Of a stretch of 64,000 nt of DNA, positions 20,520 through 61,897 are shown one piece after another. The translations under genes were made by a program, and so were the position numbers. The stretch comes from Mycobacteriales bacterium (lineage in GTDB: Bacteria > Actinomycetota > Actinomycetes > Mycobacteriales > CADCTP01). Location: contig DATBFW010000203.1 in the NCBI GenBank assembly GCA_036558285.1, forward strand, positions 2,631-66,630, written 5' to 3'. How positions within the stretch are numbered: the stretch's first letter is position 1; each line of letters starts with the position of its first letter. Below the pieces are notes generated by a model. That model did no database searches and was not told the origin of the DNA. It worked only from the letters and a program-made list of their open reading frames with translations.

Positions 20520-20649
20520 CCGGGCCGGCACCCTGACCCGGGTCGCCGGCCGGCCCCGCCGTCTCACCTTGACCGGGCCGGCACCCTGACCCGGGCCGCC
20601 GGCCGGCCCCGCCGCCTCACCCTGACCCGGCCGGCACCCCAGACCCGGC
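20491..20649. repeat. 53-bp tandem repeat x3 (third copy degenerate) spanning two convergent stop codons
   Basis: Units start at 20491, 20544 and 20597: cgccggccggccccgccg(c/t)ctcacc(t/c)tgacc(g/c)ggccggcaccc... Confidence 0.9.
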
Positions 20650-29159: not shown

Positions 29160-29234
29160 GGCATCCCCCGAGGATCCGGCGCAGCCCGACCGTACCTCCG
29201 ATCGCCGGGACACGGACCGGATCGGGATCGCGCG

Positions 29235-29253
29235 CTATCCCGGGCCGATGACG
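29235..29253. promoter_or_regulatory. Regulon box CTATCC-cgggc-CGATGA(CG)
   Basis: Lies between the divergent FAD oxidoreductase and DUF3500 genes; 1 mismatch to consensus. Confidence 0.6.
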
Positions 29254-29263
29254 GCGCGCTACG

Positions 29264-34120: not shown

Positions 34121-34170
34121 GCGAATCCCCCCTTCCCCGGTCACCGTCCGCGCCGGACGAGGCTCCGTCA

Positions 34171-34187
34171 CCATCCGTCGTGGATGA
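34171..34187. promoter_or_regulatory. Regulon box CCATCC-gtcgt-GGATGA, probably bidirectional
   Basis: 22 nt to GACGGT on the minus strand (towards DUF2252) and 22 nt to AAGGAT on the plus strand (towards ClC). Confidence 0.7.
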
Positions 34188-34249
34188 GCGACCGCGTTCA
34201 TTCGCAGTGAAGGATGCGGCGCCGCTGGCGCCCCCGGGAGGGTGAGTGC

Positions 34250-43774: not shown

Positions 43775-43793
43775 CTATCCGCCGGGGATGACG
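43775..43793. promoter_or_regulatory. Regulon box CTATCC-gccgg-GGATGA(CG) upstream of cydA
   Basis: Exact consensus, 8 nt after the LuxR #4 stop. Confidence 0.72.
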
Positions 43794-43888
43794 CGGCCCG
43801 GCACCGGCCGCTGTCTGCTTGAGCCGGCGCCGATGCCGCCCGCAGCGTGCCCGCGACGCGGGCGGCCGGAGAACGACGAGGAGTGCAG

Positions 43889-45277: not shown

Positions 45278-45290
45278 CAAGGAGCCGGCG

Positions 45291-46292
45291 ATGGACTTCG
45301 CGCTGGTCTGGTTCACGCTGGTGACCCTGCTGTGGACCGGGTTCTTCGTGCTCGAGGGGTTCGACTTCGGCGTCGGCATGCTGCACCGGCTGGTCGGCCG
45401 CACGGACGACGAGCGGCGGCTGGCGGTGAGCTCGATCGGCCCGCTCTGGGACGGCAACGAGGTCTGGCTGATCGTCGCCGGCGCCTCGATGTTCGCCGCC
45501 TTCCCCGGCTGGTACGCGACGATGTTCTCCGGCTTCTACCCGGCGCTGATCGTGTTGCTGGCCGCGCTGATCGTCCGCGGCGTCGCGATCGAATACCGCG
45601 GGCACCGGGACTCGGCGCGCTGGCGGCGGAACTGGAGCATCCTGCTCACCGCGGGCAGCCTGCTCGCGCCGCTGCTGATCGGGGTCGCCCTCGGCGACCT
45701 GTTGCGCGGCGTGCCGATCGACTCGAACCAGGAGTACACCGGCGGCTTCGTCGACATACTCACCCCGTACGGGCTGTACGTGGGCGTGACGGTGACGGTG
45801 CTGGCCGCGCTGCACGGCTCGACGTTCCTGGCGCTGAAGGTGGCGGACCCGGTCCGCGGCCGCGCCCACTCCGTGTCGGTCGTGCTGGCTCCGGTCGCCG
45901 CAGCACTCGTGGTCGGCTTCGTGATCTGGACGCAGTCGCTGGCGTCGGGCTGGGTTCCCGGCGCCCTCCCGATCCTCGCCGCGGTCGGTGCGATCGCTGC
46001 CGCCATCCTTGTGCCCCTGCACCGGGAGGCCTGGGCGTTCACCGCGACCGCCGTCGCGCTGGGCGGAACGATCGCGGCCCTGTTCGTGGAGCTGTACCCG
46101 CGGGTGATGGTGTCGAGCACCAACTCGGCGTTCGACCTCACCGTGCAGAACACGTCCTCCTCGCCGTACGCGCTGAAGGTGATGACGATCGCGGCGGCGG
46201 TGTTCCTGCCGCTGGTGCTGCTCTACCAGGGGTGGACCTACTACGTGTTCCGGCGGCGGCTGACGCTGGCCGATGCCGGCGAGGGGCTCTGA
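45291..46292 (+). CDS. cydB: Cytochrome bd oxidase subunit II
   Basis: LEGFDFGVG, IGPLWDGNEVWL, YQGWTYYVFRRR. Confidence 0.97.
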   Translation: MDFALVWFTLVTLLWTGFFVLEGFDFGVGMLHRLVGRTDDERRLAVSSIGPLWDGNEVWLIVAGASMFAAFPGWYATMFSGFYPALIVLLAALIVRGVAIEYRGHRDSARWRRNWSILLTAGSLLAPLLIGVALGDLLRGVPIDSNQEYTGGFVDILTPYGLYVGVTVTVLAALHGSTFLALKVADPVRGRAHSVSVVLAPVAAALVVGFVIWTQSLASGWVPGALPILAAVGAIAAAILVPLHREAWAFTATAVALGGTIAALFVELYPRVMVSSTNSAFDLTVQNTSSSPYALKVMTIAAAVFLPLVLLYQGWTYYVFRRRLTLADAGEGL

Positions 46293-46295
46293 CCG

Positions 46296-47999
46296 GTGCG
46301 GGCACTCGACCCCAGGCTGCTGCGGCGGACCCGGGCCGCCCGGGTGGCGCTCGGCGTGGACGTCGTGCTCGGCCTCGCCGCGACCGCCTGCGTGCTGGGC
46401 CAGGCGGTGGTGGTGGCCGCGCTGGTCGCCGGGGCGTTCGATCGCCGGCCGGTCGTCGAGCAGGGGCGGCTGCTGGCCGTGCTGGTCGGCCTCGTCGTCG
46501 CCCGGGCCGCGCTCGCCGGCTCGGTCGAGTCGGTCGGGCGGTGGGCGGCCGGCCGGGTGATGTCCGACCTCCGGCGCGCGCTGGTCCGGCACCGGCTCCG
46601 CGCGCCCGTCGGCGGCACCCGCGGTGCCGCGGACGCGTCGGGCGACCCGGTCGAGAGCGGCGAGATCGCCACCGCGGCGGTCGCCGGGGTGGACGCGCTC
46701 GAGGTCTACCTGGCCCGCTACCTGCCGCAGGTCGTGCTGGCGGTCGCGGTGCCGGTCGCGGTCCTGGCCGTCACGCTGGCGATCGACCCGACCTCCGCGG
46801 CGATCATGCTCGTCACGCTGCCGGCGATCCCGATGCTGATGGCGCTCGTCGGCCGGTTCTCCGAGGAGCGGGCCCGGGCCCGCTGGCAGGCGCTGTCCCG
46901 GCTGTCGAACCACGTCCTCGACGTGGTCCGCGGGCTGCCGACGCTGCGCGCGTACAACCGCGCCGAGGCGCAGGCGGACCTGGTCGGGGCGAGCGCCGAG
47001 CAGTACCGGCTGACCACCATGCAGGTGCTGCGGGTGTCGTTCCTGTCCGGCGCTGTGCTCGACCTGGCCGCGACGATCGGCACCGCGCTGGTCGCGGTCA
47101 CCCTCGGGGTCCGGGTGATCGACGGCGACCTCGGCCTGCAAGCGGCGCTCACCGTGCTGCTGCTCACCCCGGAGCTGTACGCGCCGATCCGCTCACTGGG
47201 CGCGCAGTATCACGCCAGCGTCGACGGGCTGGCCGCGGCCGAGCGCATCCTCGACCTGCTCGGGCCGGCAGCGCCGGCGGCCGAGACGACCGGCCGCTGC
47301 CCGGACTGGCAGGAGATCAGGCTGACCGGCGTCACCGTGGCCCGGCCCGGCCGGCCCGCTCCCGTGCTGCACGATCTCGACCTGCGGCTGCGGCGGGGTG
47401 AGGTGGTCGCACTGGTCGGGCCGAGCGGGGTGGGCAAGAGCACGGTGGCCGCCGTGCTGCTGGGACTGTGCCGACCGGACCGGGGCCGGGTCACCGTCGG
47501 CGGCGAGGACCTCGGCGTCCTCGACCCGGACTGGTGGCACCGGCAGGTCGGCTGGCTGCCGCAGCGGCCGACGATGTTCCGCGGCACCATCCGGGACAAC
47601 ATCGCCCTCGGCGACCCGCACGCGTCGCCCGAGCGGGTGGCCGAGGCGGCGCGGCTGGCCGGCGTCGACGGGTTCGTCGCCGAGCTCCGCCTCGGTTACG
47701 ACACCCGGATCGGTGCCGGCGGGCGCGGTCTGTCGGCCGGCGAGCAGCGGCGCATCGCGCTGGCCCGGGCGTTGCTGCGGGACGCGCCGCTGCTGGTGCT
47801 CGACGAGCCGACGGCCAACCTCGACCCGGAGACCGCCGCCGTCGTGTCCGCCGCGATCGCGCGGGTGGCGCCGGGGCGGGCCGTGCTGGTCGTCGAGCAC
47901 CGCCCGGACCTCGTCCCGGCCGATCGCACGGTCGTGCTCGGTCCGGCCGAGGCTCCCGTCGAGGCGCCCGCGCCCGGCCGGCCGGTGACCGTCCGATGA
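46296..47999 (+). CDS. cydD: Heme/thiol ABC exporter subunit CydD
   Basis: YLARYLPQ, GPSGVGKS, LSAGEQRRIALARA, LDEPTA. Confidence 0.93.
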   Translation: MRALDPRLLRRTRAARVALGVDVVLGLAATACVLGQAVVVAALVAGAFDRRPVVEQGRLLAVLVGLVVARAALAGSVESVGRWAAGRVMSDLRRALVRHRLRAPVGGTRGAADASGDPVESGEIATAAVAGVDALEVYLARYLPQVVLAVAVPVAVLAVTLAIDPTSAAIMLVTLPAIPMLMALVGRFSEERARARWQALSRLSNHVLDVVRGLPTLRAYNRAEAQADLVGASAEQYRLTTMQVLRVSFLSGAVLDLAATIGTALVAVTLGVRVIDGDLGLQAALTVLLLTPELYAPIRSLGAQYHASVDGLAAAERILDLLGPAAPAAETTGRCPDWQEIRLTGVTVARPGRPAPVLHDLDLRLRRGEVVALVGPSGVGKSTVAAVLLGLCRPDRGRVTVGGEDLGVLDPDWWHRQVGWLPQRPTMFRGTIRDNIALGDPHASPERVAEAARLAGVDGFVAELRLGYDTRIGAGGRGLSAGEQRRIALARALLRDAPLLVLDEPTANLDPETAAVVSAAIARVAPGRAVLVVEHRPDLVPADRTVVLGPAEAPVEAPAPGRPVTVR

Positions 48000-49663
48000 G
48001 GACGCTCGTCCGGCTGGTGCGGCTGGCCAGGCCGCCGGTCGGCCGGCTGCTGCTGTCGGTGCTGCTGGGCGCGGCCGCGGTGCTCGCCGGCGTCGGGCTG
48101 ATGACGCTGGCCGGCTACCTGATCTCGCGGTGCGCCGAGCACCCGCCGGTGCTGTCCCTGACGGTCGTCATAGTCGGCGTGCGGGCGTTCGGGATCGCCC
48201 GGCCGGTCGCCCGGTATGCCGAGCGGCTCGTCTCGCACGACCTCGCGTTCCGGGTGCTGGCCCGGACCAGGGTGACCGCCGTCCGGCAGCTGGCCGTGCG
48301 GCTTCCGGACCGGGCCGGCCGGGACCGCGACGGCGACCTGCTGGCCCGGCTGGTCGGCGACATCGACGCGACCCAGAACCTGTTCCTGCGCGGGCTCTCG
48401 CCACCGCTGGTCGCGCTGCTGAGTGGGGCGGCGTCGGTCGCCGCGGCGGCTTTGCTGCTCCCGTCCGCCGGGCTGGTGCTGGCCGCCGGGCTGCTCGCCG
48501 GCGGCGTCCTGGTGCCGGCGCTGGCGGCCGCCGCAGGCCGCAGCGGCCGGCGCCGGGCCACGGTCCGGGCCGAGCTCACCGCCGAGCTGGTCGAGCTGAT
48601 CGGCGGCGCGCCCGAGCTGGTGGTGCACGGTGCCGACCGGGCCGCCCTCGACCGGGTCGAGCGCCTGGACGGCGAGCTGGTCCGGCTCGGCCGCCGGGAC
48701 GCCGTCGCGGCCGGCCTGGTCGACGGCCTGGCACTGCTGGTGTCCGGGCTCACCGTCGCCGGCGTGCTGGCCGCCTGCGTGCACGCGGCCGGCGACGGGC
48801 GGCTGGACCGGGTCCTGGTCGCCGCGGTCACGCTGCTCGCCGCCGCGGCCTTCGAGGCCGTCGTCCCGCTGCCGGTGACCGCGCTCAGCCTGCGGGCCAC
48901 GCTCGAGTCCGGGCGGCGGCTGCTGGAGGTGGCCGACCGTCCGCCCGCGGTCCGCGACCCGGCCGTGCCCGCCGCCGTGCCGGCAACCGGGCCGCTGGAG
49001 CTCGACGGCGTGTCCCTGCGCCCGGACGACAGCGACGGCTGGGGGCTGCGCGGCGCCGAGCTCTCGCTGGCGCCGGGGCGGCACCTTGCCCTGCTCGGCC
49101 GGTCCGGCAGCGGCAAGACCACGATCGCCGAGCTGTTGGTCCGCTTCCTCGACCCGGACGGCGGGCGGGTCCGGCTGGCCGGTGCCGACCTGCCCACGCT
49201 GGCCCAGCGCGACCTGCGCGCCCGGGTCACGCTGGACCGGCAGGACGCATACCTGTTCGCCTCGACGATCCGGGAGAACGTGCGCCTGGCCCGGCCCGGA
49301 GCCGACGACGCCGCGGTCGAGGCGGCGTTGCGCCGGGCGGGACTGGGGGACTGGGTCGCCGGGTTGCCCGCCGGGCTGGACACCCCGGTGGGCGAGGACG
49401 GCGCCGCGGTGTCGGGCGGCGAGCGCCGCCGGCTGGCGCTGGCCCGGGCCTTCCTCGCCGACACCCCGGTGCTGGTGCTGGACGAGCCCACCGCGCACCT
49501 CGACCGTCCCACCGCGACGGCGCTGATGACCGACCTGATGTCCGCGACCGACGATCGCGCTGTGCTGCTCATCACCCACCGGAGCGAGGAGGCGGCGCTC
49601 ACCGACGGCGTGCTCCGGCTGCAGCGCGGACGGATCGTCGCCGAGCCTATCCGCGGCGGGTGA
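47996..49663 (+). CDS. cydC: Heme/thiol ABC exporter subunit CydC
   Basis: VRAFGIAR..ARYAERLVSHD, GRSGSGKT, VSGGERRRLA; ATGA coupling. Confidence 0.93.
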   Translation: MRTLVRLVRLARPPVGRLLLSVLLGAAAVLAGVGLMTLAGYLISRCAEHPPVLSLTVVIVGVRAFGIARPVARYAERLVSHDLAFRVLARTRVTAVRQLAVRLPDRAGRDRDGDLLARLVGDIDATQNLFLRGLSPPLVALLSGAASVAAAALLLPSAGLVLAAGLLAGGVLVPALAAAAGRSGRRRATVRAELTAELVELIGGAPELVVHGADRAALDRVERLDGELVRLGRRDAVAAGLVDGLALLVSGLTVAGVLAACVHAAGDGRLDRVLVAAVTLLAAAAFEAVVPLPVTALSLRATLESGRRLLEVADRPPAVRDPAVPAAVPATGPLELDGVSLRPDDSDGWGLRGAELSLAPGRHLALLGRSGSGKTTIAELLVRFLDPDGGRVRLAGADLPTLAQRDLRARVTLDRQDAYLFASTIRENVRLARPGADDAAVEAALRRAGLGDWVAGLPAGLDTPVGEDGAAVSGGERRRLALARAFLADTPVLVLDEPTAHLDRPTATALMTDLMSATDDRAVLLITHRSEEAALTDGVLRLQRGRIVAEPIRGG

Positions 49664-49665: not shown

Positions 49666-49739
49666 ACCCGGCCCGGTCGGGGATCCGAGCATGGCGGCAG
49701 GCCGGCCCCCCGCGAGTGGCCGACCGGACAGGAGGCGTC

Positions 49740-51323
49740 ATGACGACCGCGGTCGATCACTATGACGTGATCGTCATCGGCAGCGGAGCGGGCGGTGGCA
49801 CCCTCGCGCACCGACTCGCCCCGAGCGGGAAGCGGGTGCTGCTGCTGGAGCGGGGCGGCTACCTGCCGCGGGAGCGCGACAACTGGGACTCCGGCGAGGT
49901 CTTCGTCAAGGCGAAGTACCGCGCGCCCGAGTTCTGGTACGACCGGCACGGCAACGAGTTCCCGCCCGAGGTCAACTACTACGTCGGCGGGAACACGAAG
50001 TTCTACGGGGCGGCGCTGTTCCGGCTGCGCCCGGAGGACTTCGGCGAGCTGCAGCACCACGACGGGATCTCGCCGGCCTGGCCGATCGACTACGCCGACC
50101 TGGAGCCGTACTACACCGAGGCCGAGCACCTCTACCGGGTGCACGGCCGGCACGGGGAGGACCCGACCGAGGGCCCGTACGGGGCGGACTACGCGCACCC
50201 GCCGGTCGAGCACGAGCCGCGCATCCAGCAGCTGTCCGACGACATGGAGAAGCTCGGCCTGCGCCCGTTCCACCTGCCGATCGGGGTCGACCTCGACCAG
50301 GACGTGGACGGGTTCGCCAGCCGGGGCAGCGCGTGCATCCGCTGCGACCGGGTGGACGGGTTCCCCTGCCTGGTGCAGGCGAAGTCGGACGCGCAGGTGG
50401 TGTGCGTCGACCCGGCGGTGGCGAGCGGCGGAGTCGAGCTGCTGACCGGCGCGTACGTGGAGCGGCTGGAGACGGACCCGAGCGGCCGGTCCGTCAACGA
50501 GGTGGTCACCCGGATCGACGGGAACCCTGGGCCGGTCACGTTCAGCGCCGACGTCGTCGTGGTCTCCTGCGGCGCGGTGAACTCGGCCGCTCTGCTGCTG
50601 CGGTCCGCGACCGACGCCCACCCCAACGGCCTGGCCAACGGGTCGGACGTGGTCGGCCGCTACTACCTGCGGCACAACAACCTGGCGCTGATGGCGGTCT
50701 CCAAGGACCCGAACCCGACCCGGTTCCAGAAGACGCTGGCCCTGCACGACTGGTATTTCGGCGACGACGAGTGGCCGTACCCGCTCGGCGGCATCCAGAT
50801 GCTCGGCAAGTCCGACCTGGAGCAGATCAGGGCGGAGGCGCCGCGGTGGGCCGGCCGGGTCTCGCCGGGGATGCCGTTCGAGGTGCTCGCCCACCACGCG
50901 GTCGACTTCTGGCTCTGCGGCGAGGACCTGCCGGTGGAGACGAACCGGGTGACCCTGACCCAGGAGGGCGGGATCCAGCTGACCCTGGACGAGAAGCACA
51001 ACACCGCCGGGGTGATCCGGCTGCGCCACCACCTGCAGCAGCGGCTCGGCCGGCTGGGCATGCACGAGCACCTGCTCGAGCACAGCATCTACCTGCACAA
51101 GACCATGCCGATCGGGGCGACCGCGCACCAGGCGGGCACGGTGCGGTTCGGCACCGACCCGGCGACCTCCGCGCTCGACACCACCTGCAAGGCACACGAG
51201 CTGGACAACCTCTACGTGGTCGACACCAGCTTCTTCCCGAGCATCGGCGCGGTGAACCCGTCGCTCACGGCGATCGCGAACGCGTTGCGCGTCGGCGACC
51301 ACATCCGGGAGCGGATCTCGTAA
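49740..51323 (+). CDS. GMC-family flavoprotein oxidoreductase
   Basis: IGSGAGGG, VGGNTKFYGA, AHQAGTVRFG, VDTSFFPSIGAVNP. Confidence 0.93.
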   Translation: MTTAVDHYDVIVIGSGAGGGTLAHRLAPSGKRVLLLERGGYLPRERDNWDSGEVFVKAKYRAPEFWYDRHGNEFPPEVNYYVGGNTKFYGAALFRLRPEDFGELQHHDGISPAWPIDYADLEPYYTEAEHLYRVHGRHGEDPTEGPYGADYAHPPVEHEPRIQQLSDDMEKLGLRPFHLPIGVDLDQDVDGFASRGSACIRCDRVDGFPCLVQAKSDAQVVCVDPAVASGGVELLTGAYVERLETDPSGRSVNEVVTRIDGNPGPVTFSADVVVVSCGAVNSAALLLRSATDAHPNGLANGSDVVGRYYLRHNNLALMAVSKDPNPTRFQKTLALHDWYFGDDEWPYPLGGIQMLGKSDLEQIRAEAPRWAGRVSPGMPFEVLAHHAVDFWLCGEDLPVETNRVTLTQEGGIQLTLDEKHNTAGVIRLRHHLQQRLGRLGMHEHLLEHSIYLHKTMPIGATAHQAGTVRFGTDPATSALDTTCKAHELDNLYVVDTSFFPSIGAVNPSLTAIANALRVGDHIRERIS

Positions 51324-51334
51324 CGAGCGGAGGC

Positions 51335-52717
51335 ATGACCGTGACCGACCGAGTCGACGCCCTGGTGATCTTCGGTGCCACCGGCGACCTGGCCAAGCTG
51401 GAGACCTTCCCCGCGCTGGTGGGGCTGGTCGACCGGGGCGTGCTGGACGTCCCGGTGATCGGGGTCGCCAAGAGCGGCAAGGACCTCGAGCAGTTCCGGG
51501 CGTACGCGGAGGCGTCGCTGCGGCTGAACAAGATCGACCCGACCGGTACCGCGGCGGCGAAGATGCTCGGCCTGCTCGACTACGTCGACGGCGACCTCGA
51601 CGACGACGCGACGTACCAGGAGGTGGCGGCGAAGCTGGGCTCCGGCGCGAAGGTGCTGTTCTACCTGGAGGTGCCGCCGCCGCTGTTCGGCCGCATCGCC
51701 CGCGGCATCGGCGCGGCCGGGCTCGCCGCCGGGGCCAGGGTGATGGTGGAGAAGCCGTTCGGGACGGATCTGCGCAGCGCGCAGCAGCTGAACGCGACGC
51801 TGCACGAGATCTTCCCCGAGGACGCGGTCTACCGGGTCGACCACTGGCTCGGGCTCGAGGCGATCGAGAACGTCCTGTTCGGACGGTTCGCCAACACGAT
51901 CCTGGAGCCGCTGTTCAACCGGACGTACGTGGAGAGCATCCAGCTCACGATGGCCGAGGCGTTCGACGTCGCCGACCGGGGCCGGTTCTACGACCGCGCC
52001 GGCGCCGTCCGCGACGTGCTGCAGAACCACCTGCTCCAGGTGCTGGCGACGGCGACGGCGGAAGCACCGACCGGGACCGGCCTGGCCGCCTGGCGGGAGG
52101 CCAAGGACCAGCTGGTCAAGGGGCTGCGGCCGATGAGCCCGGCCAGCACCGTGTTCGGACAGTACGAGGGCTATCTCGACGTGGACGGGGTCGCGCCCGG
52201 GTCGACCACGGAGACGTTCGTGGCGACCCGGCTCTACCTGGACTCCTGGCGCTGGGCGGACGTCCCCATCCTCATCAGGGCGGGCAAGTGCATGCCGGTC
52301 ACGTCCACCGAGATCCAGGTCAGGTTCCGGCGGCCGCCGTACAACCTGTTCGGCCTCGAGCCGTTCGAGAACGTCAACTCGCTGCGCTTCCGCGTCTGGC
52401 CGGAGAGCAGGACCACGATCACGCTAGCCGGCCGGCACCCCGGGGTCGGGATGCGGGCCGCCCGGCGTGAGCTCGTCTTCGCCGAGGCGTCCGGTCCCGA
52501 CATGCGGCCGTACGACCGGCTCATCGGCGCGGCGCTGGACGGTGACCGATGGCTGTTCGCGCGCCAGGACACCGTCGAGACCGCGTGGACGGTGGTCGAT
52601 CCGGTGCTGGCCTCGGGCACGGTCGCCGTGCACCCCTATCCCCGGGGCAGCTGGGGACCCAAGCAAGCCGACTCGATCCTGCCGGACGGGGAAAGCTGGC
52701 ACGACCCGGTCGGCTGA
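51335..52717 (+). CDS. zwf: Glucose-6-phosphate dehydrogenase-like protein with variant substrate peptide
   Basis: GATGDLA, VEKPFG, RVDHWLGLE (canonical RIDHYLGKE), RDVLQNHLLQ, WRWADVP...RAGK. Confidence 0.85.
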   Translation: MTVTDRVDALVIFGATGDLAKLETFPALVGLVDRGVLDVPVIGVAKSGKDLEQFRAYAEASLRLNKIDPTGTAAAKMLGLLDYVDGDLDDDATYQEVAAKLGSGAKVLFYLEVPPPLFGRIARGIGAAGLAAGARVMVEKPFGTDLRSAQQLNATLHEIFPEDAVYRVDHWLGLEAIENVLFGRFANTILEPLFNRTYVESIQLTMAEAFDVADRGRFYDRAGAVRDVLQNHLLQVLATATAEAPTGTGLAAWREAKDQLVKGLRPMSPASTVFGQYEGYLDVDGVAPGSTTETFVATRLYLDSWRWADVPILIRAGKCMPVTSTEIQVRFRRPPYNLFGLEPFENVNSLRFRVWPESRTTITLAGRHPGVGMRAARRELVFAEASGPDMRPYDRLIGAALDGDRWLFARQDTVETAWTVVDPVLASGTVAVHPYPRGSWGPKQADSILPDGESWHDPVG

Positions 52718-52740
52718 CACACGCATACGGGAGGCAGAGG

Positions 52741-54156
52741 GTGAGTGACGATCGCACGCCCACCGCGGTGGTCGTGGGGGCCGGCTTCGCCGGCATCGGG
52801 GCCGCCCGCGAGCTGTCCAAGCACGGCGTGCGGGTGGTGCTGCTGGAGCGCAACGACTACCACCAGTTCCAGCCACTGCTCTACCAGGTCGCGACCGCGG
52901 AGCTGGCTCGCTCGGACGTCGCCGCCTCGCTGCGGACCTTGATGCGGCACCACGAGCTGGTCGACGTCAAGGCCGCCGACGTGGCGGCGGTGGACCCGGA
53001 GGCACGCACCGTGACCGCGGCCGACGGGACGACGTTCACCGGCGACTACCTGATCCTCGCCGCCGGCTCGCGGCCGAACTTCTTCGACACCTCCGGCGCC
53101 GACGAGCACTCGATCCCGCTGTACTCGATCAACGACGCCGAACGCCTGCGTACCAGGGTGTTCGCGGCGTTCGACGCCGCCGACCGGGACCCCTCGCTGG
53201 TCGACCGGGGCGTGATCCGGTTCGTCGTGGTCGGCGGTGGCCCGACCGGGGTCGAGGTGGCCGGTGCGCTGGCCGAGCTGATCCAGGACGTGCTGCCGCA
53301 CCAGTACCGGAGCCTGGCCGTGCGCTCGGCCAGCGTGCACCTGGTCGACCACGCGCACACCCTGCTCGGCCCGTTCTCCGACCGCGCGCACGACTACGCG
53401 GCGAAGGTGCTGCAGCGCAAGGGAGTGCGACTCCACCTCGGCACCGGCGTCGTCGAGATCACTCCGGACAAGGTCGTGCTCAGCGATGGCACCGTGCTCA
53501 CCACCCGCACGGTGATCTGGGCCGGCGGCGTGATGGCGGCCTCGCTGGCCGAGCGGACCGGACTGCCGCTCGGCCGCGGCGGGCGGATCGCGGTCGAGCA
53601 CGACCTCACCGTCGAGGACGTCCCCGGCGTGTACGCGGTGGGCGACGTCGCCAACGTGCCGGCGCCGGACGGGACTTCCTACCCGCAGCTTGGCTCGGTG
53701 GCCCTGCAGAGCGGGCAGTGGGCGGCCCGCAACGTTGTCGCCGACGTGCACGGGAAGTCCCGCAAGCCGTTCCACTACCACGACAAGGGGATCATGGCGA
53801 TGATCGGCCGCGGCGCCGCCGTCGCCGAGCTCGGCGAGCACCGGCACGAGCTGCACGGGCCGGTCGCGTTCGCGTCCTGGCTCGGCGTGCACGCGTACCT
53901 GATGAGCGGGGTCCGCAGCCGGGTGGACGCGTTCGTGTCCTGGGGCTGGGACTACTTCAGCACCAACCGCACGCCCGCGATCGTCGACCGGTCCGACGCC
54001 GGCCGCATCGACTGGGGCGACGAGGACGACGACGCCGACGACACCAAGGACGGGGATCCGCGGGCCGCCGGTGCCGACGGTCGGCCGGTCCCGGCCGACC
54101 CCGAGCCCGCGGACGACGACCACCGGCGCCAGCCGGATTCCATCCGGGCGCCGTAG
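52741..54156 (+). CDS. ndh: Type II NADH dehydrogenase
   Basis: VGAGFAG, HQFQPLLYQVAT, VVGGGPTGVEVAG, YHDKGIMAMIGR. Confidence 0.88.
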   Translation: MSDDRTPTAVVVGAGFAGIGAARELSKHGVRVVLLERNDYHQFQPLLYQVATAELARSDVAASLRTLMRHHELVDVKAADVAAVDPEARTVTAADGTTFTGDYLILAAGSRPNFFDTSGADEHSIPLYSINDAERLRTRVFAAFDAADRDPSLVDRGVIRFVVVGGGPTGVEVAGALAELIQDVLPHQYRSLAVRSASVHLVDHAHTLLGPFSDRAHDYAAKVLQRKGVRLHLGTGVVEITPDKVVLSDGTVLTTRTVIWAGGVMAASLAERTGLPLGRGGRIAVEHDLTVEDVPGVYAVGDVANVPAPDGTSYPQLGSVALQSGQWAARNVVADVHGKSRKPFHYHDKGIMAMIGRGAAVAELGEHRHELHGPVAFASWLGVHAYLMSGVRSRVDAFVSWGWDYFSTNRTPAIVDRSDAGRIDWGDEDDDADDTKDGDPRAAGADGRPVPADPEPADDDHRRQPDSIRAP

Positions 54157-54184
54157 CGCCTCCCACCGCACGAAAGGGCTCGCC

Positions 54185-56095
54185 ATGGCCGACCAGCTCA
54201 CGCCGGCAACTTCCCTGTCCATCGCCGAGCACGGCCTGATCGGCGACCTGCACACCGCGGCGCTGGTGGCGACCGACGGCACCATCGACTGGTTCTGCTG
54301 CCCGCGGTTCGACTCGCCCTCGGTGTTCGGCGCGCTGCTCGACCCGGAGAAGGGCGGCCACTGCCGGATCCGCCCGCTCGGCACGGAGTACATCACCAAG
54401 CAGCTCTACCTGCCCGACACGGCGGTGCTGATCACCCGCTTCCTGGCCGCGGACGGGGTCGGCGAGGTCGTCGACTTCATGCCGCCGGCCGGCGCCACGG
54501 CCAGCGAACAGCACCGCCTGGTCCGGATGGTGCGCTGCGTCCGCGGCGAGCTGACCTTCGAGATCGAGGTCGCGCCCCGGTTCGACTACGGCCGGCGCGA
54601 GCACACCCTGCAGCTGACCGCCGCCGGGGCGGTGTTCACCGCCGGGGACATGGGACTGACGCTGCACGCCGTCCGCGATCCGGACGACGAGCGGGTCGCC
54701 GAGGTGCGCCCGGCCGGCGAGGACCTGGTGGTGCGGTTGCCGCTGTCGGCCGGCCAGACCCGCGGGGCCATCCTCGAGTGGGGCGCCGGCCGCCCGCAGG
54801 AGGTCCGGCCCGAACAGATCGAGCGCGAGCACGCCGCGACCGTGCAGTTCTGGCGGTCCTGGCTGGCCCGCTCGACGTACCAGGGCCGGTGGCGGGAGAT
54901 GGTGCAGCGCTCGGCGATCACGCTGAAGCTGATGACCTACGCGCCCACCGGCGCGCTGGTGGCGGCCCCGACCGCGGCCCTGCCCGAGCAGGTCGGCGGC
55001 GAGCGGAACTGGGACTACCGCTACACCTGGGTCCGGGACGCGTCGTTCTCGGTACGCGCGCTGCTCGGGCTCGGGTTCGTCGACGAGGCGGCCGGGTTCG
55101 CGCTGTGGCTGCGCGACCGGGTGGCCGAGCAGGACGCGCGCAAGGACGGGCCGCCGCTGAACATCATGTACCGGGTGGACGGCTCGTCCGACCTGGTCGA
55201 GGAATCGCTCGAGCACTGGTCCGGCTACCGCGGGTCGCGCCCGGTGCGGATCGGCAACGGGGCCGCCGAGCAGCTCCAGCTGGACATCTACGGCGAGGCG
55301 TTCGACAGCATCTACGCCGCCGACCAGGTCGGCATCCAGATGGGTCACCGCGGCTGGACCGAGCTGGCCAAGGTGCTCGACTGGCTGGTGGACAACTGGG
55401 ACCAGCCCGAGGAGGGCATCTGGGAGACCCGCGGCGGCCGGAAGGACTTCACCTACGGGCGCGCGATGAGCTGGGTCGCGTTCGACCGGGCGGTGCGGCT
55501 GGCCGTCCGGTACGGCCGGCCGGCACCGCTGGAGCGGTGGGCCGCCGCCCGGGACGCGATCTACCAGCAGATCATGGACAAGGGCTGGAACGCCGACCGC
55601 GGCGCGTTCGTGCAGCACTACGGGAGCCCGGTGCTGGACTCGTCGCTGCTGCGGATGTCCCGGCTCGGCGTGATCGCACCGCTCGATCCGCAGTGGACGT
55701 CCACTTTGGACGCGATGCGGGACGAGCTGGTCAGCGACAGCCTCGTCTACCGGTACAACCCGGCGGCGTCCCCGGACGGGCTGGAGGGGGCGGAGGGCAC
55801 CTTCTCGCTGTGCACGTTCAGCTGGGTCGACGCGCTGGCCCGGTCCGAGCGCCTGGAGGAGGCCAGGCTGGTGTTCGAGAAGATGCTGACCTACGCCAAC
55901 CACGTCGGGCTCTACTCCGAGGAGATCGCCGCGACCGGGGAGCAGATCGGCAACTTCCCGCAGGCGTTCACCCACCTGTCCCTGATCGATGCCGCGCTGA
56001 CCCTGGACGCGGCGCTCGACCGCCGGTCCGGGTCCAACGGGCACCGGCCGGCCGTCCTGACCCTCGCCGCGATGGGGGACCGGGACCGGCTGTGA
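54185..56095 (+). CDS. Glycoside hydrolase family 15 (trehalase/glucoamylase-like)
   Basis: HGLIGDLHTAAL, SLPE-like ALPEQVGGERNWDYRYTWVRD, GIWETRG, LYSEE...GNFPQAFTH. Confidence 0.95.
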   Translation: MADQLTPATSLSIAEHGLIGDLHTAALVATDGTIDWFCCPRFDSPSVFGALLDPEKGGHCRIRPLGTEYITKQLYLPDTAVLITRFLAADGVGEVVDFMPPAGATASEQHRLVRMVRCVRGELTFEIEVAPRFDYGRREHTLQLTAAGAVFTAGDMGLTLHAVRDPDDERVAEVRPAGEDLVVRLPLSAGQTRGAILEWGAGRPQEVRPEQIEREHAATVQFWRSWLARSTYQGRWREMVQRSAITLKLMTYAPTGALVAAPTAALPEQVGGERNWDYRYTWVRDASFSVRALLGLGFVDEAAGFALWLRDRVAEQDARKDGPPLNIMYRVDGSSDLVEESLEHWSGYRGSRPVRIGNGAAEQLQLDIYGEAFDSIYAADQVGIQMGHRGWTELAKVLDWLVDNWDQPEEGIWETRGGRKDFTYGRAMSWVAFDRAVRLAVRYGRPAPLERWAAARDAIYQQIMDKGWNADRGAFVQHYGSPVLDSSLLRMSRLGVIAPLDPQWTSTLDAMRDELVSDSLVYRYNPAASPDGLEGAEGTFSLCTFSWVDALARSERLEEARLVFEKMLTYANHVGLYSEEIAATGEQIGNFPQAFTHLSLIDAALTLDAALDRRSGSNGHRPAVLTLAAMGDRDRL

Positions 56096-56123
56096 CCGCG
56101 CGGATCGCGCTCCGGGCGCGGCG

Positions 56124-56882
56124 ATGACCGCATCGCCGGTCCCGGAGCGCGAGGATGCGAGCGTGAGCAACCGCCACCGGGACCGGTACGAGCTGGTCTT
56201 CCTGCTGCTGGTGTCGACGTTCGTGCTGAGCGCGTTCGGGCTGCACGAGTGGGGGCGGCTGCCGGTGCTGCTGCTCTACGCGGCGGCGCTGGTGCTCGCG
56301 CTGCGGTCGTCCAGGGTGCCCGGGCCCATCTCCCGCGGCGTGCGAGTGGTGCTCGCGGTGGGCACGATCGGCATCGGGATCGGCGTGCTCGCTGCGCCCG
56401 GCGACCTCACCGAGGGCATCCTGTCGTGCTGGATCGCCGTAGTGCTGGCAACGACGATCGTCATTGTCGTCATGCGGATCGTGCACCACCGGGTGGTCAC
56501 CGGGCAGACCATCTTCGGCGCGCTGAGCGCCTACCTCATGATCGGGTTCTTCTTCTCCGCCGTCTTCACCGCGATCGACCGGCTCGGATCGGGGTCGTTC
56601 TTCGCGGGCGGGAAGGAGGCCAACTCGGCCACGATCCAATACTTCAGCTTCGTGACCTTGTCCACCACGGGCTACGGCGACTACACCGCCGCAGGTGACG
56701 CCGGTCGGTCGATGGCCGTGCTGGAGGCGCTGCTCGGGCAGATCTTCCTGGTCACGCTCGTCGCCCGGCTGGTCGCCCTGTTCGGGACAGAGAGGCCGGA
56801 GCGGCGGAGGGAGCGATCCGGCAGGCGCCTGCCCGTGGAGGCGCCCGCCGGCGACGGACCGGACGGTCCGGACGCGCCCTAG
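56124..56882 (+). CDS. Potassium channel family protein (Ion_trans_2)
   Basis: YFSFVTLSTTGYGD selectivity filter; EALLGQIFLVTLVARLV. Confidence 0.9.
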   Translation: MTASPVPEREDASVSNRHRDRYELVFLLLVSTFVLSAFGLHEWGRLPVLLLYAAALVLALRSSRVPGPISRGVRVVLAVGTIGIGIGVLAAPGDLTEGILSCWIAVVLATTIVIVVMRIVHHRVVTGQTIFGALSAYLMIGFFFSAVFTAIDRLGSGSFFAGGKEANSATIQYFSFVTLSTTGYGDYTAAGDAGRSMAVLEALLGQIFLVTLVARLVALFGTERPERRRERSGRRLPVEAPAGDGPDGPDAP

Positions 56883-57334
56883 TAGCGGCTGTGCTTCGGC
56901 TCGCGCAGCTCGCGGCCGTGCGCGATGAGGGCGTAGATCACCAGGACGTCGATCGCGATGATCAGCGTCGACCACACCGGGTACGAGGCGATGTAGGCGA
57001 AGTTCAGCACCGCGCTGACGATCGCGGCGATGACGCCGACCGTCCGGCCCCAGATGCGGCCGGAGAAGATCGCCGCGCCGGCCGCGACCAGCACGATGCC
57101 GAGGATGAGGTGCACCCAGCCCCAGGCGGTGTAGTCGACATTGACGACGAGGCCGTCCGAGCGAACCAGGTAGACCTCGTCCCGGAACAGCGCGACGAGG
57201 CCGTCGATGGCCTGGAACGCGCCGACGACGACCAGCATGACGCCGGCGAAGACGGCCCAGCCGGCCCAGCCGGTGCGCTCGGGGGCGCTGGTGTAGGTGG
57301 AGTCGGAGCTCTGAGTCGTAGGTGTGTCCGTCAC
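56879..57334 (-). CDS. DUF7144-like small membrane protein
   Basis: GWAVFAGVML...WGWVHL...YPVWSTLIIAIDVLVIYAL; RBS GAGGAG. Confidence 0.85.
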   Translation of the reverse strand: MTDTPTTQSSDSTYTSAPERTGWAGWAVFAGVMLVVVGAFQAIDGLVALFRDEVYLVRSDGLVVNVDYTAWGWVHLILGIVLVAAGAAIFSGRIWGRTVGVIAAIVSAVLNFAYIASYPVWSTLIIAIDVLVIYALIAHGRELREPKHSRY

Positions 57335-57405
57335 GGTGTGTCTCCTCGGTCTCGTGGCGCGACGGGGTCGCTGGGTGCCACCGTGGCGCGAGCGGTGCCC
57401 GACAG

Positions 57406-57424
57406 CGTCATCCGGCCCGGATAG
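57406..57424. promoter_or_regulatory. Regulon box (minus strand CTATCC-gggcc-GGATGA-CG)
   Basis: Exact consensus; CACGGT lies 22 nt downstream towards the DUF7144 gene. Confidence 0.72.
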
Positions 57425-57560
57425 TTGCCGGCCGTCCGGCCGCCGCCGCTGCCACCTCCGCCGGCCCGACCTACTCGGGGCGGACGAGGCGGACCGCCCG
57501 CCGCCGACGCTTGTATCGCGGGAGGCCACGTCCGCGACGCGGTCCAGGGAGGAGCCGGTC

Positions 57561-58067
57561 ATGTCGACGCTGATCGCCATCGGTTATCCGGACGAGACCA
57601 CGGCGAGCTCGGCCGCCGAGGAGGCCCACCGGATGGCTCGCGACCTCATCCTCGAGCCCGAGGCCATCGCGGTGATCAGCCGGGACCGCGAGGGCAAGTT
57701 CCAGGTCAGCACCAACCATCATCCGGTCGCCGGCGGCACCTCCTGGGGGATGTTCTGGGGCCTTCTGTTCGGGTTCCTGTTCTTCGTCCCTGTCTTCGGC
57801 ATGGCCGTCGGGGCGGGGCTCGGTGCGGTGATGGGTCGGGTCACGAAGACCGGCATCGACCGCCAGTTCCGCGACCAGGTCCGGGACATGCTGGAGCCGG
57901 GGACGTCGGCGCTGTTCCTGGTGGTCGACCGGGTCACGCCGGACCGGGCCGTCGAGCGGCTGCGCCGGTTCGGCGGCACCGTGCTCAAGTCCTCGCTGAG
58001 CAAGCAGGACGAGCAGGAGCTGCAGGAGGCCCTGCACGGCCGGCCCGTCCAGGCGTCGGCGTCGTGA
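57561..58067 (+). CDS. DUF1269 family protein
   Basis: LIAIGYPDE, Gly-zipper GMFWGLLFG...GAGLGA, LEPGTSALF; RBS GGAGGAG. Confidence 0.92.
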   Translation: MSTLIAIGYPDETTASSAAEEAHRMARDLILEPEAIAVISRDREGKFQVSTNHHPVAGGTSWGMFWGLLFGFLFFVPVFGMAVGAGLGAVMGRVTKTGIDRQFRDQVRDMLEPGTSALFLVVDRVTPDRAVERLRRFGGTVLKSSLSKQDEQELQEALHGRPVQASAS

Positions 58068-58080
58068 GCAGGACACCGGC

Positions 58081-58380
58081 ATGCTGAGCAACCACGAGCG
58101 CCGCGAGCTCGCCCGGATCGAGCAGGGTCTGCGCGAGGACCCGGCGTGGCGCGAGCCGCCGGCCCTGCCCGGACACACCACCTGGTTGCGTCGCTGGGGA
58201 CTGCGCCTGCTGATCGGCTTCGCCGGCCTGGTCATGACGATCGGGGTCATCACGACCGACGGTGAGCTGCTCCTGCAGGGCGTGCTGATGATGGGTGCCG
58301 CCTGCGTGTGGTGGCTGTGCCGGCAGGTCGTCGCCGCGAAGGAGGAGTCGCACTCCGCCGACCACCAACCCGAGCACTGA
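58081..58380 (+). CDS. DUF3040 family protein
   Basis: MLSNHERRELARIEQGLREDP plus two TMs. Confidence 0.85.
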   Translation: MLSNHERRELARIEQGLREDPAWREPPALPGHTTWLRRWGLRLLIGFAGLVMTIGVITTDGELLLQGVLMMGAACVWWLCRQVVAAKEESHSADHQPEH

Positions 58381-58394
58381 CCCACTCCGGATGG
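58378..58394. promoter_or_regulatory. Regulon box variant TGACCC-actcc-GGATGG upstream of the LDH-like gene
   Basis: Reverse complement CCATCC-N5-GGGTCA, 1 mismatch; overlaps the DUF3040 stop. Confidence 0.5.
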
Positions 58395-58453
58395 ACCGGC
58401 GACGACGGAAGCGGGTATGACCTGCGCGTCGTCGTCGTGCGAAGGGGTGGGCC

Positions 58454-59392
58454 GTGAAGGTCGGTGTGGTCGGAGCGGGCGCGGTCGGGGCGGCGACGGT
58501 GCTGTCGCTGATCGAGCGGGGCGGGACGTTCCGGGAGCTGGTGGTCCTGGACCGGGACCGGAAGCGGGCCGACGGCGTGGCCGTCGACATGCGCTACGCG
58601 ACCCCACTGTCCCCGACCGTCGACGTCCGGGCCGGCGACTACGACGCGCTGGCCGGCGCCGAGCTGGTGATCATCACCGCCGGCGTGAACGAGAAGACCG
58701 GCGGAGCCACCGATCGCGCCGACCCGGAGGGCAGGCGCCGGCTGCTCGACACCAACGCCGGCGTCTACCGCGACGTGGTCCCGAAGGTCGTCGCGGTCGC
58801 CCCGGAGTCGGTGCTCATGGTCGTCACCGACCCGCCCGACCCGCTGGCCGACCTGACCCGCCGGCTGGCCGGCCACGGCCGGGTCTTCTCCACCGGCACG
58901 TTGATCGACAGCCTGCGCTTCCGGGTGCACCTCGCCGAGCGGCTGCACATCCGCCCGCGGGACGTGCAGGCGATGGTGGTCGGCGAGCACGGCACGTCCG
59001 AGGTGCTGCTGTGGTCGTCCGCGCGGGTGAGCGGGATCCCGGTCCTCGACCTGCTCCGGGACGGCGACCAGCCGATCGACGAGCTGAAGGAGCAGATCGA
59101 GAACGACATCCGGTACGCGAACATCACGATCATCGAAGGCACCGGGGCCAGCCAGTACGGCATCGGCGCGGTGTCGGCGCGGCTGGCCGAGGCGGTGCTG
59201 CGGGACGAGGGCGCCGTGCTGCCGGTCGCGGCCTACTCGCCGGCCTACGACGTGACCCTGTCGCTGGTCAGCGTGCTCGGCGCCGGCGGCGTGCAGCGGA
59301 TGTACGAGCCGGAGATGACCGACGAGGAGCGCGCGGCGCTCGAGCGCAGCGCCGGGATCCTCCGCGACGCGGCCCGCCGGATCCTGGACTGA
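58454..59392 (+). CDS. Lactate/malate dehydrogenase family 2-hydroxyacid dehydrogenase with atypical specificity loop
   Basis: VGAGAVG, GTLIDSLRF, GEHG, IIEGTGASQYGIG. Confidence 0.9.
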   Translation: MKVGVVGAGAVGAATVLSLIERGGTFRELVVLDRDRKRADGVAVDMRYATPLSPTVDVRAGDYDALAGAELVIITAGVNEKTGGATDRADPEGRRRLLDTNAGVYRDVVPKVVAVAPESVLMVVTDPPDPLADLTRRLAGHGRVFSTGTLIDSLRFRVHLAERLHIRPRDVQAMVVGEHGTSEVLLWSSARVSGIPVLDLLRDGDQPIDELKEQIENDIRYANITIIEGTGASQYGIGAVSARLAEAVLRDEGAVLPVAAYSPAYDVTLSLVSVLGAGGVQRMYEPEMTDEERAALERSAGILRDAARRILD

Positions 59393-59527
59393 GGCGGCAA
59401 GCAACCAAGAGGGACGCTACCGAGGTGCCGCCCCGAGCGCATCACCCTCCGCGCGCCGGACCGGCCCGGACGGAACTGTCGTACGGGTCCCCTAGCGTCG
59501 GGGACCGACAGCGGCGAGGAGGAGATC

Positions 59528-60085
59528 ATGGATGCACCGGTGACCCAGCTCGACGAGCGGTTCAGCGATCCTCACACCGACGCGACCAGCTGGGCGCAGG
59601 CCCGCGAGGTCCTCGAAGGTGCCCAGATCAGCTGGATCTCGACCGTGCGCGCCGACGGGCGCCCGCACGTCACACCGCTGGTCGCGGTCTGGCTCGACGG
59701 CAGGATCCACTTCGCGACCGGCGCGACCGAGCAGAAGGGCGTCAACCTCGCCACCAACCCGCACGTGGTGCTGACCACCGGCTGCAACGCCTGGGACAGC
59801 AGCCTCGACGTGATGGTCGAGGGAGAGGCCCGCCGGGTGACCGACCGGGCCACGCTCGACCGGCTGGCCGCCGCCTGGGCGACCAAGTGGGACGGCAGCT
59901 GGCGGTTCGAGGTGACCGACGAGGGCTTCGGCAACACCGGCGCCAGTGCCCAGGCTCTGGTCTACGCGGTGGAGCCGACGCGGGTGCTGGCCTTCGGCCG
60001 GCGGCGGCTGGCCGAGCCGGGCGAGGACACGATGCTGGCGCGGGTGGCCTTCACGCACACCCGGCACCTACCGCCGCGGGACTGA
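59528..60085 (+). CDS. Pyridoxamine 5'-phosphate oxidase-like (split-barrel flavin/F420-binding) protein
   Basis: WISTVRADGRPHVTP, KGVNLATNPHV. Confidence 0.88.
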   Translation: MDAPVTQLDERFSDPHTDATSWAQAREVLEGAQISWISTVRADGRPHVTPLVAVWLDGRIHFATGATEQKGVNLATNPHVVLTTGCNAWDSSLDVMVEGEARRVTDRATLDRLAAAWATKWDGSWRFEVTDEGFGNTGASAQALVYAVEPTRVLAFGRRRLAEPGEDTMLARVAFTHTRHLPPRD

Positions 60086-60850: not shown

Positions 60851-61897
60851 ATGCAACTCGGCATGGTCGGACTGGGACGCATGGGCTCGAACCTGGTCCG
60901 GCGGCTGATGCGGGACGGCCACGAGTGCGTCGTCTACGACGTTCGGCCCGACGCGGTACGCGGCCTGGCCGGCGAGGGCGCCACCGGCGCGGACTCGCTG
61001 GCGGACCTGGTGGCGAAGCTCGCCAAGCCCCGGGCGGTGTGGATCATGGTGCCGGCCGGCGAGATCACCCAGGCCGCCGTCGACGGCCTGGCCGCCCATC
61101 TGGAGCCGGACGACGTCATCATCGACGGCGGCAACTCCTCCTACCGCGACGACATCGCCCGCGCGGCCGCGGTCAAGGACCGCGGCATCCACTACATCGA
61201 CATCGGCACCAGCGGCGGCGTGTGGGGGCTGGACCGCGGCTTCTGCCTGATGATCGGCGGCGAGGACGCCCCGGTCACCCGGCTGCGGCCGATCTTCGCC
61301 TCGATCGCGCCCGGGGTGGCCGCGGCCGAGCGCACGCCGGGCCGCACCGGCGAGCCCGTCGACGCCGAGCACGGCTTCCTGCACTGCGGCCCGACCGGCG
61401 CGGGGCACTTCGTCAAGATGACCCACAACGGCATCGAGTACGGGATCATGGCCTCGTACGCGGAGGGCCTGAACATCCTCAAGAACGCCGACGCCGGCCT
61501 GCGCCAGCGCGACGCCGACGCGGAGACGGCGCCGCTGGAGCACCCGGAATATTACCGCTACGAGCTGGACGTCGAGGCGGTCGCCGAGGTCTGGCGGCGC
61601 GGCAGCGTGATCCAGTCCTGGCTGCTCGACCTCGCCGCCACCGCACTGCACCAGTCGCCGGAGCTGGCCGAGTTCTCCGGCACGGTCTCCGACTCCGGCG
61701 AGGGCCGGTGGACCGCGATCGCCGCCGTCGAGGAAGGGGTGCCGGCGCCGACCCTGACCGCCGCGCTCTACTCCCGGTTCGGCTCCCGCGGCCTCGACCA
61801 CTTCGCCGACCAGGTGCTCTCGGCGATGCGGCAGGGGTTCGGCGGGCACCTGGAGAAGCACGGCCTGCCGCACGACACGGGAGCGGTCAAGCCATGA
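60851..61897 (+). CDS. gnd: 6-phosphogluconate dehydrogenase (decarboxylating, short YqeC type)
   Basis: MQLGMVGLGRMG, IDGGNS, GTSGGVWG, GHFVKMTHNGIEYG, SDSGEGRW, MRQGFGGH. Confidence 0.96.
   Translation: MQLGMVGLGRMGSNLVRRLMRDGHECVVYDVRPDAVRGLAGEGATGADSLADLVAKLAKPRAVWIMVPAGEITQAAVDGLAAHLEPDDVIIDGGNSSYRDDIARAAAVKDRGIHYIDIGTSGGVWGLDRGFCLMIGGEDAPVTRLRPIFASIAPGVAAAERTPGRTGEPVDAEHGFLHCGPTGAGHFVKMTHNGIEYGIMASYAEGLNILKNADAGLRQRDADAETAPLEHPEYYRYELDVEAVAEVWRRGSVIQSWLLDLAATALHQSPELAEFSGTVSDSGEGRWTAIAAVEEGVPAPTLTAALYSRFGSRGLDHFADQVLSAMRQGFGGHLEKHGLPHDTGAVKP

Follow-up and report, generated by a model that had tools for sequence, protein, structure and literature searches.

The 64,000-nt stretch of DNA analysed here (the window), from a Mycobacteriales bacterium (GenBank assembly GCA_036558285.1, contig DATBFW010000203.1, positions 2,631 to 66,630 of the forward strand), carries a tight cluster of five genes directly 3' of the cytochrome bd genes cydABDC. 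The five genes encode a GMC-family flavoprotein dehydrogenase, a glucose-6-phosphate dehydrogenase (Zwf), a type II NADH:quinone oxidoreductase (NDH-2), a GH15 glucohydrolase and a small K+ channel. Both units are preceded by an operator of the type bound by a MalT-like activator in Actinoplanes, and genes for three MalT-like regulators lie next door. Apart from the channel gene, the same genes were found together, in shuffled orders, in several phyla. We consider it probable that the MalT-like-activated operon and cydABDC form an inducible, non-proton-pumping branch that would oxidise intracellular glucose-based reserves. The parts and the operator-regulator pair were already known; a conserved multi-phylum module as cargo of this known regulon is apparently undescribed. 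Neither the module of ndh, GMC, GH15, zwf and cydAB nor such a module under MalT-type boxes was found in the searchable literature.

Genes were called from third-position GC content (GC3) in the window, which has a G+C content of about 74%, and the calls were checked with Pfam and NCBIfam. All five genes of the cluster were on the + strand: GMC (527 aa, 49740–51323; Pfam GMC_oxred_N and GMC_oxred_C), a zwf paralog (460 aa, 51335–52717; G6PD_N and G6PD_C, TIGR00871), an ndh paralog (471 aa, 52741–54156; matched to the solved NDH-2 chain 9mqy_A), a GH15 glucohydrolase gene with a trehalase-like N-domain (636 aa, 54185–56095; TREH_N and Glyco_hydro_15) and the K+ channel gene (252 aa, 56124–56882; Ion_trans_2 and a TTGYGD filter). 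These were exactly the coordinates of an earlier sequence-only reading of this DNA, which had described five co-oriented genes with gaps below 30 nt after cydABDC. The successive gaps measured 11, 23, 28 and 28 nt, each contained a purine-rich ribosome-binding site, and simple scans detected no internal terminator or sigma-70-like promoter within the five-gene unit. The channel gene, the last of the five, overlaps a convergent DUF7144 gene by 4 nt. The arrangement is operon-like, and the five genes would be co-transcribed. In tblastn searches of the genome (4.88 Mb, 264 contigs), all five proteins proved to be extra copies. Other zwf-like sequences were present on four contigs (34–38% identity, one of them at a contig end), other ndh-like genes on contigs C217 and C11 (34% and 26% identity, respectively), and a second GH15 gene, a second cydA and a second channel gene elsewhere.

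The preceding unit, also on the + strand, consists of cydA (43889–45277; Cyt_bd_oxida_I, 1.1e-156), cydB (45291–46292; Cyt_bd_oxida_II, 2e-100), cydD (46296–47999; ABC_membrane and ABC_tran) and cydC (47996–49663; ABC_tran), the last two overlapping by 4 nt. The start of cydA was placed at the ATG at 43889, behind the ribosome-binding site GAGGAG. CydA and CydB, the two subunits of cytochrome bd, are thus followed by two ABC half-transporters, the CydDC exporter needed for assembly of the oxidase.

The regions upstream of cydA and GMC have the element CTATCC-N5-GG(A/G)TGA in common. The copy CTATCC-GCCGG-GGATGA (43775–43791) is located 98 nt before the cydA ATG, and the copy CTATCC-GCGGC-GGGTGA (49647–49663) is located 77 nt before the GMC ATG, where it overlaps the last codons of cydC and contains its stop codon within GGGTGA. 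The exact pattern YATCC-N5-GGRTGA occurred four times in the window (34172, 43776, 49648 and 57408) against 0.05 expected, and none of 100 shuffled sequences reached four. All four copies were in promoter-like positions, and weaker copies were present at 29235 and 58378. Genome-wide, 3 exact and 16 one-mismatch sites were counted, compared with about 0.06 and 3, respectively, estimated from base composition. Only the exact longer pattern was enriched: the looser YATCC-N5-GGRTG with one mismatch allowed was found 14 times in the window against 13.6 expected, and a generic repeat search of the window returned compositional noise and missed the box.

The right half-site resembled the E. coli MalT box, and the literature was searched for the element for this reason. 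The palindrome 5'-TCATCC-N5-GGATGA-3' was defined in Actinoplanes sp. SE50/110 as the site of the MalT-like LuxR activator ACSP50_3915 (Droste 2020, PMC7567727). Judged by its sequence, the box in the window is this published MalT-like LAL operator type. The sequence-only reading had been right that a regulon box precedes the operon and that cydABDC has a box of its own; the signal itself is not a new one. In Actinoplanes, the 3' end of the motif was located 34.4 ± 1 nt upstream of 17 transcription start sites, overlapping the −35 region, and about 40 of 51 genes were lowered in the malT deletion strain (PMC7567727). When this spacing was applied to the window, transcription start sites were predicted near 43825 for cydABDC and near 49698 for the GMC operon. 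A −10-like GAGCAT is present at 49687–49692, 24–29 nt past the GMC box, and at the same distance in two related loci (L092 and L093); its spacing fits the published distance between motif and start site.

Three genes encoding MalT-like LAL regulators were identified immediately upstream of cydA. Regulator 1 (754 aa, 35683–37947, + strand) combines a STAND NTPase with a GerE helix-turn-helix (Pfam GerE; NCBIfam MalT model NF003420, 5.6e-67), regulator 2 (748 aa, 38494–40740, − strand) matched AAA_16 and GerE (NF003420, 1.4e-69), and regulator 3 (about 900 aa, 41065–43767, + strand, start uncertain, frame taken from the GC3 plot) matched NF003420 at 1e-56. The translation of regulator 3 showed a MalT-type N-terminus, a Walker A motif, a C-terminal helix-turn-helix and a match to the solved MalT 8bob at 3e-27, and its gene stops 8 nt before the cydA box. 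All three proteins scored below the equivalog cutoff of NF003420. Activation of cydABDC and of the GMC operon by these neighbouring regulators is what the arrangement suggests. Three of the window boxes (43775, 49647 and 57408) have the unusual left half-site CTATCC, and the boxes of a second island on contig C244 have the canonical TCATCC or TCCTCC. Given that the genome encodes at least five MalT-like paralogs, the CTATCC half-site may mark paralog-specific operators.

The products of the operon were then compared with known enzymes. The closest solved chains to the GMC protein were the alpha subunit of the Burkholderia cepacia FAD-dependent glucose dehydrogenase (FAD-GDH, 6a2u_B, 7e-31) and the large subunit of the Gluconobacter fructose dehydrogenase (7W2J, 1e-24), at 22–24% identity. 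The same two chains were its nearest fold neighbours when the AlphaFold model was searched with Foldseek (template modelling scores of 0.73–0.74), followed by pyranose oxidases; the model was used for fold ranking only and not for cysteine geometry. The catalytic pair His463 and Asn506 was invariant in 24 orthologs. The cysteines of C199-x2-C202-x7-C210 were conserved in 30–32 of 32 orthologs, and this loop aligned with the Fe-S loop of 6a2u_B. The GMC protein thus has in common with B. cepacia FAD-GDH (6A2U) and the Gluconobacter enzyme the catalytic His/Asn pair, and its Cys-rich loop is placed where their 3Fe-4S cluster is bound, but those enzymes are membrane-bound complexes with small and cytochrome c subunits, whereas the GMC protein appears to be cytoplasmic and neither subunit is encoded nearby. 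It is probably of the FAD-glucose/fructose-dehydrogenase type, with a putative Fe-S cluster.

The Zwf protein passed the TIGR00871 equivalog cutoff marginally, with 406.8 bits against 400.6. The NDH-2 product aligned with 9mqy_A, an actinobacterial-type NDH-2, across residues 8–462 (1.8e-71), including both dinucleotide folds and the C-terminal helices, and with the C. thermarum enzyme 4nwz (1.3e-44). It retains the acidic residue after the second Rossmann strand, a feature that suggests use of NADH rather than NADPH. The GH15 protein showed TREH_N (8.9e-19) and Glyco_hydro_15 (7.8e-71) domains, which is also the architecture of the GH15 trehalases (archaeal TreH1 and TreH2, Mycobacterium smegmatis trehalase), and it shares with them a cytoplasmic location, as predicted. 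Against solved structures, phmmer found nothing for this protein, and a profile search reached only isomaltose glucohydrolase 5z3a and a dextran dextrinase, so known structures offer no lead on its substrate. The GH15 family includes trehalases (PMC10969515, PMC11327188) and also holds glucoamylases, glucodextranases and isomaltose glucohydrolases, and trehalose is therefore one candidate substrate among several. Neither the GH15 nor the GMC protein has a signal peptide, which fits an intracellular substrate. The channel matched Ion_trans_2 at 4.9e-10, with the selectivity filter TTGYGD in its translation.

To survey the linkage across phyla, one genome per species was scanned with the ndh protein, which gave 80 loci at 49–66% identity, and co-occurrence was counted by de novo clustering of open reading frames together with tblastn using the window proteins. 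By these counts ndh was recorded in 74 of the 80 loci, cydA and GMC in 43 each, cydB and GH15 in 32 each, cydDC in 30 and zwf in 28; cydD follows cydAB in 30 related loci. Gene orders were shuffled. The order zwf-GH15-GMC-ndh-cydABDC was found in Solirubrobacteraceae, and other orders were found in Actinomycetes, Acidimicrobiia, Chloroflexia and Acidobacteriota. The association of ndh, GMC, GH15, zwf and cydAB is thus no local accident but recurs over Actinomycetota, Chloroflexota and Acidobacteriota. Other genes also recurred as neighbours: a short-chain dehydrogenase/reductase (SDR) passing the NCBIfam glucose 1-dehydrogenase subfamily cutoff (22 loci), an aldose 1-epimerase (14 loci), GlgX above the equivalog cutoff (14 loci), an MFS transporter (13 loci) and a GH63/MGH1-like hydrolase (11 loci). 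In Chloroflexia the module has the order ndh-GMC-MFS-SDR-GlgX-GH63...cydAB and is located beside an OmpR-type response regulator (metagenome-assembled genomes, loci L050, L052, L056, L058, L060, L063, L064, L068 and L071).

The operator accompanies the module in part of this range. In the 1.48 Mb of the 80 loci, 89 boxes with up to one mismatch were counted, and 30 of these stood 10–260 nt ahead of one of the genes in the module (zwf 15, ndh 8, cydA 4, others 5), in 21 loci, mainly of Actinomycetota as judged by their record titles. That the genes stay linked through rearrangement, exchange of single enzymes for functional analogues and loss of the operator points to a shared function. Common to these loci are enzymes that would release glucose from alpha-glucoside reserves, oxidise it and pass the electrons to O2 via NDH-2 and cytochrome bd. 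The K+ channel was considered as a core component and rejected, as it accompanies ndh in only 2 of the 80 loci; although the sequence-only reading had counted it in the module, it is a lineage-specific (genus-level) passenger of the regulon. The genes for gnd, LDH, PNPOx, AhpC-like protein and melibiase were rarely or never found with ndh in the other loci.

Under the favoured mechanism, switching on of a MalT-like STAND/LuxR sensor would fire the activator-dependent promoters of cydABDC and of the GMC operon, and the cell would then make a second, dedicated, non-proton-pumping electron-transport branch together with the enzymes that feed it. The cytoplasmic GH15 enzyme would liberate glucose from stored alpha-glucoside, be it trehalose, an alpha-glucan or an oligosaccharide, the cytoplasmic GMC flavoprotein would oxidise a sugar and pass electrons toward menaquinone, the extra Zwf would oxidise glucose-6-phosphate, the extra NDH-2 would re-oxidise NADH, and cytochrome bd, matured by CydDC, would reduce O2. 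Such burning of reserves may serve to supply maintenance energy, to balance the redox state or to remove O2. The sequence-only reading had likewise proposed a co-regulated energy pathway. The presence of the same operator on both units and the conserved linkage of sugar release, sugar oxidation, NDH-2 and bd agree with this proposal; gnd, which that reading had noted nearby, has no MalT-type box. It is located at 60851–61897 and passes the model for NAD+-dependent 6-phosphogluconate dehydrogenase.

Several observations weigh against this mechanism. The unit encodes neither a glucokinase nor a 6-phosphogluconolactonase, which leaves the path between free glucose and Zwf incomplete, and the description of the pathway as self-contained did not hold. 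The cydA and GMC boxes differ from the published consensus at two and three positions, respectively; the sensor domains of the regulators showed no similarity to the solved part of MalT; no MalT-type box was found in the Chloroflexia loci when up to one mismatch was allowed; and none of the cyd, ndh, zwf, GH15 or GMC genes is present in the published Actinoplanes regulon table (PMC7567727). For the GH15 protein, the match to archaeal TreH1 was strong in E-value (1.4e-109) but scored 367 bits where the cutoff is 820, and TreH2 gave 313 where it is 1000. For the GMC protein, the cysteine spacing C-x2-C-x7-C differs from the CC-x4-C-x3-C of the solved 3Fe-4S loop, the AlphaFold model was mediocre (predicted local distance difference test score of 66), and no small subunit with a Tat signal and no cytochrome c subunit were found among the operon genes or conserved neighbours.

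The strongest alternative is that the genes share a switch and no pathway, as heterogeneous cargo of a MalT-like stress or stationary-phase island, with Zwf supplying NADPH, bd giving stress tolerance, and GMC and GH15 acting on unrelated substrates. The Actinoplanes regulon mixes DUF1269 proteins, peptidases, the arginine deiminase pathway, transporters and glucosidases, for which its authors found no coherent function (PMC7567727). In the present genome too, boxes precede genes for DUF2252, CLC, DUF7144, DUF1269, DUF3040, a P-type ATPase and an M20 peptidase. A shared switch alone, however, sits poorly with the linkage of ndh, GMC, GH15, zwf and cydAB in shuffled orders over classes and phyla, including the box-free Chloroflexia loci, and the Chloroflexia versions swap in other glucose-releasing and glucose-oxidising enzymes, which points to functional coupling. 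On balance we regard co-regulation without a common pathway as unlikely.

A second alternative keeps the same mechanism and gives it a different purpose, with sugar-fed NDH-2 and bd acting as an uncoupled electron sink that removes O2 or oxidants and the sugar enzymes merely supplying electrons. A chain without a proton pump, the AhpC/thioredoxin-like and PNPOx-like genes near the operon and a related cydAB-zwf-ndh locus in a Frankia symbiont (L002) would suit such a sink, but by sequence it looks the same as an energy-conserving chain, bd itself retains part of the energy, and we hold this purpose to be improbable. Equally improbable is a branch for hypoxia or dormancy under a DosR-, Rex- or similar system that responds to low oxygen, redox stress or spore germination, with MalT-like control secondary. 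NDH-2 with cytochrome bd is the classic low-oxygen and persistence chain of mycobacteria, but the conserved promoter element is a MalT-type box, the window contained no Rex operator with up to three mismatches allowed, and no DosR-type palindrome was present near either promoter (three weak hits in the window, all distant and fewer than chance). The trigger of hypoxia, dormancy exit or germination suggested by the sequence-only reading accordingly found no support at the promoters. Nor does it match the only experimental data for the operator, in which expression of the Actinoplanes region was higher on maltose than on glucose and climbed through growth (PMC7567727).

For oxidation of internal reserves by a MalT-controlled NDH-2/bd branch, the consequence is a concrete and testable function. 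The operator is predicted to control a complete NDH-2/bd branch with sugar-releasing and sugar-oxidising enzymes here and in about 20 other actinobacterial loci, and the same enzyme set is also linked in Chloroflexota and Acidobacteriota, which would make inducible oxidation of internal carbohydrate reserves the function to examine for a regulon whose purpose was left open by the operator's only experimental study (PMC7567727). The analysis also draws attention to a family of cytoplasmic GMC/Fe-S dehydrogenases that probably donates electrons directly to the quinone pool, and it may bear on how soil actinomycetes survive starvation and drying. More tentatively, and with doubt on our side, the main role of the MRLGR-type regulon of Actinomycetota could be to burn alpha-glucoside reserves of the cell itself. 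A STAND sensor would detect a product of trehalose or alpha-glucan mobilisation and switch on a private NDH-2/bd branch, to which Zwf and the GMC protein, as a hitherto unrecognised cytoplasmic FAD/Fe-S aldose:menaquinone dehydrogenase of one subunit, would deliver electrons; the module would have spread over several soil phyla.

The window was also compared with known systems as a whole. As in the Actinoplanes MRLGR, a palindromic operator of the TCATCC-N5-GGATGA type stands before many short operons, several MalT-like LuxR genes are located inside the island, and the content is rearranged and patchy between relatives; DUF1269 is cargo in common, as is DUF2252 in A. missouriensis. Unlike in Actinoplanes, the genes behind the operator here, as in 21 other loci, form a putative module of respiration and sugar oxidation, and the window boxes have the CTATCC left half. 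The E. coli and Klebsiella MalT box is GGGGA(T/G)GAGG with the core GGA(T/G)GA (quoted in PMC7567727). The likeness to these MalT systems consists of STAND ATPase-LuxR regulators, a half-site core GGATGA or GGGTGA and, as predicted for the window, an activator site at −35 that controls genes of alpha-glucan catabolism. The sites are inverted repeats here and direct repeats there, however, the sensor domains are not recognisably similar, and the targets are respiratory and oxidative here versus maltodextrin uptake and phosphorolysis there. The mycobacterial NDH-2/bd branch likewise joins a non-proton-pumping NADH:menaquinone oxidoreductase to a bd oxidase with CydDC, whereas the genes described here are extra paralogs, linked to sugar-oxidising enzymes and predicted to be under MalT-type control, with no DosR or Rex link found in the window.

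Among close relatives, the GMC gene was present in 6 of 12 genomes of the same genus and in two genomes from other families of the order. In the same-genus genome G003, whose GMC protein is 96% identical, the full arrangement and both boxes were kept (locus L092). The cydA box there is CTATCCGCGGGGGATGA at position 1897, and the GMC box at 7968 is identical to that in the window. The order was altered in four other same-genus genomes and one of another family, for example to GH15...GMC-zwf-ndh'-cydA' or with cydA divergent from GMC. Despite this rearrangement, a box is retained in five same-genus genomes and one of another family, either before GMC or at the head of the unit, and it occupies the same place before GMC in L093, L094, L096 and L097. 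An extra box with a near-duplicate of the GMC promoter (shared gagcatggcggcaggcc) was observed in G003 between ndh and GH15 (L092, 12417–12433), where the window has a gap of 28 nt; the operon would thus be split into two MalT-box units in G003 and fused in the window strain. The G+C content was 0.69–0.73 at 44001–46000 and 50001–60000 of the window compared with 0.75–0.79 in the flanks. The lower G+C content is consistent with an accessory region, perhaps acquired by transfer, and so is the presence of the GMC gene in no more than half of the genomes of the genus.

Outside the window, 7 of the 19 best boxes of the genome were located on contig C244 (14000–50000; L101 and L102), together with two more LAL regulator genes (731 and 870 aa) and genes for DUF2252, DUF6325, an M20 peptidase, a P-type cation ATPase and a SulP transporter. 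An operon on this contig that also begins with a box encodes DUF3040, a 467-aa protein without a Pfam match and a K+ channel paralog 52% identical to that of the window. The genome therefore has at least two MalT-box islands.

Within the window, the fourth exact box in order of position (57408–57424) is located in the promoter region between DUF7144 and DUF1269-DUF3040, which are divergent. The longest open reading frames of DUF7144 (− strand) and DUF1269 (+ strand), within 56879–58067, overlap by about 200 nt around this box. Their Pfam domains begin at residues 108 and 124, respectively, so the true starts are probably further in, leaving a divergent promoter region. The gene resembling lactate/malate dehydrogenases, which the sequence-only reading had also placed nearby, was found at 58454–59392, with a weak box of three mismatches (58378–58394) 60 nt before it. 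The best box of the window, CCATCCGTCGTGGATGA at 34171, is shared by a divergent pair of genes for DUF2252 (− strand) and a CLC chloride channel (+ strand) at 32651–35563; CLC and DUF2252 genes were also recurrent near ndh loci elsewhere. Another divergent pair (28026–30427) encodes a second Pyr_redox_2 flavoprotein (395 aa, − strand) and a DUF3500 protein (387 aa, + strand), with the weak box at 29235 between them. Further upstream, three tandem copies of a 53-nt GC-rich unit, 82–91% identical, were present at 20472–20639, adjoined by short GGC-rich repeats at 20158–20232.

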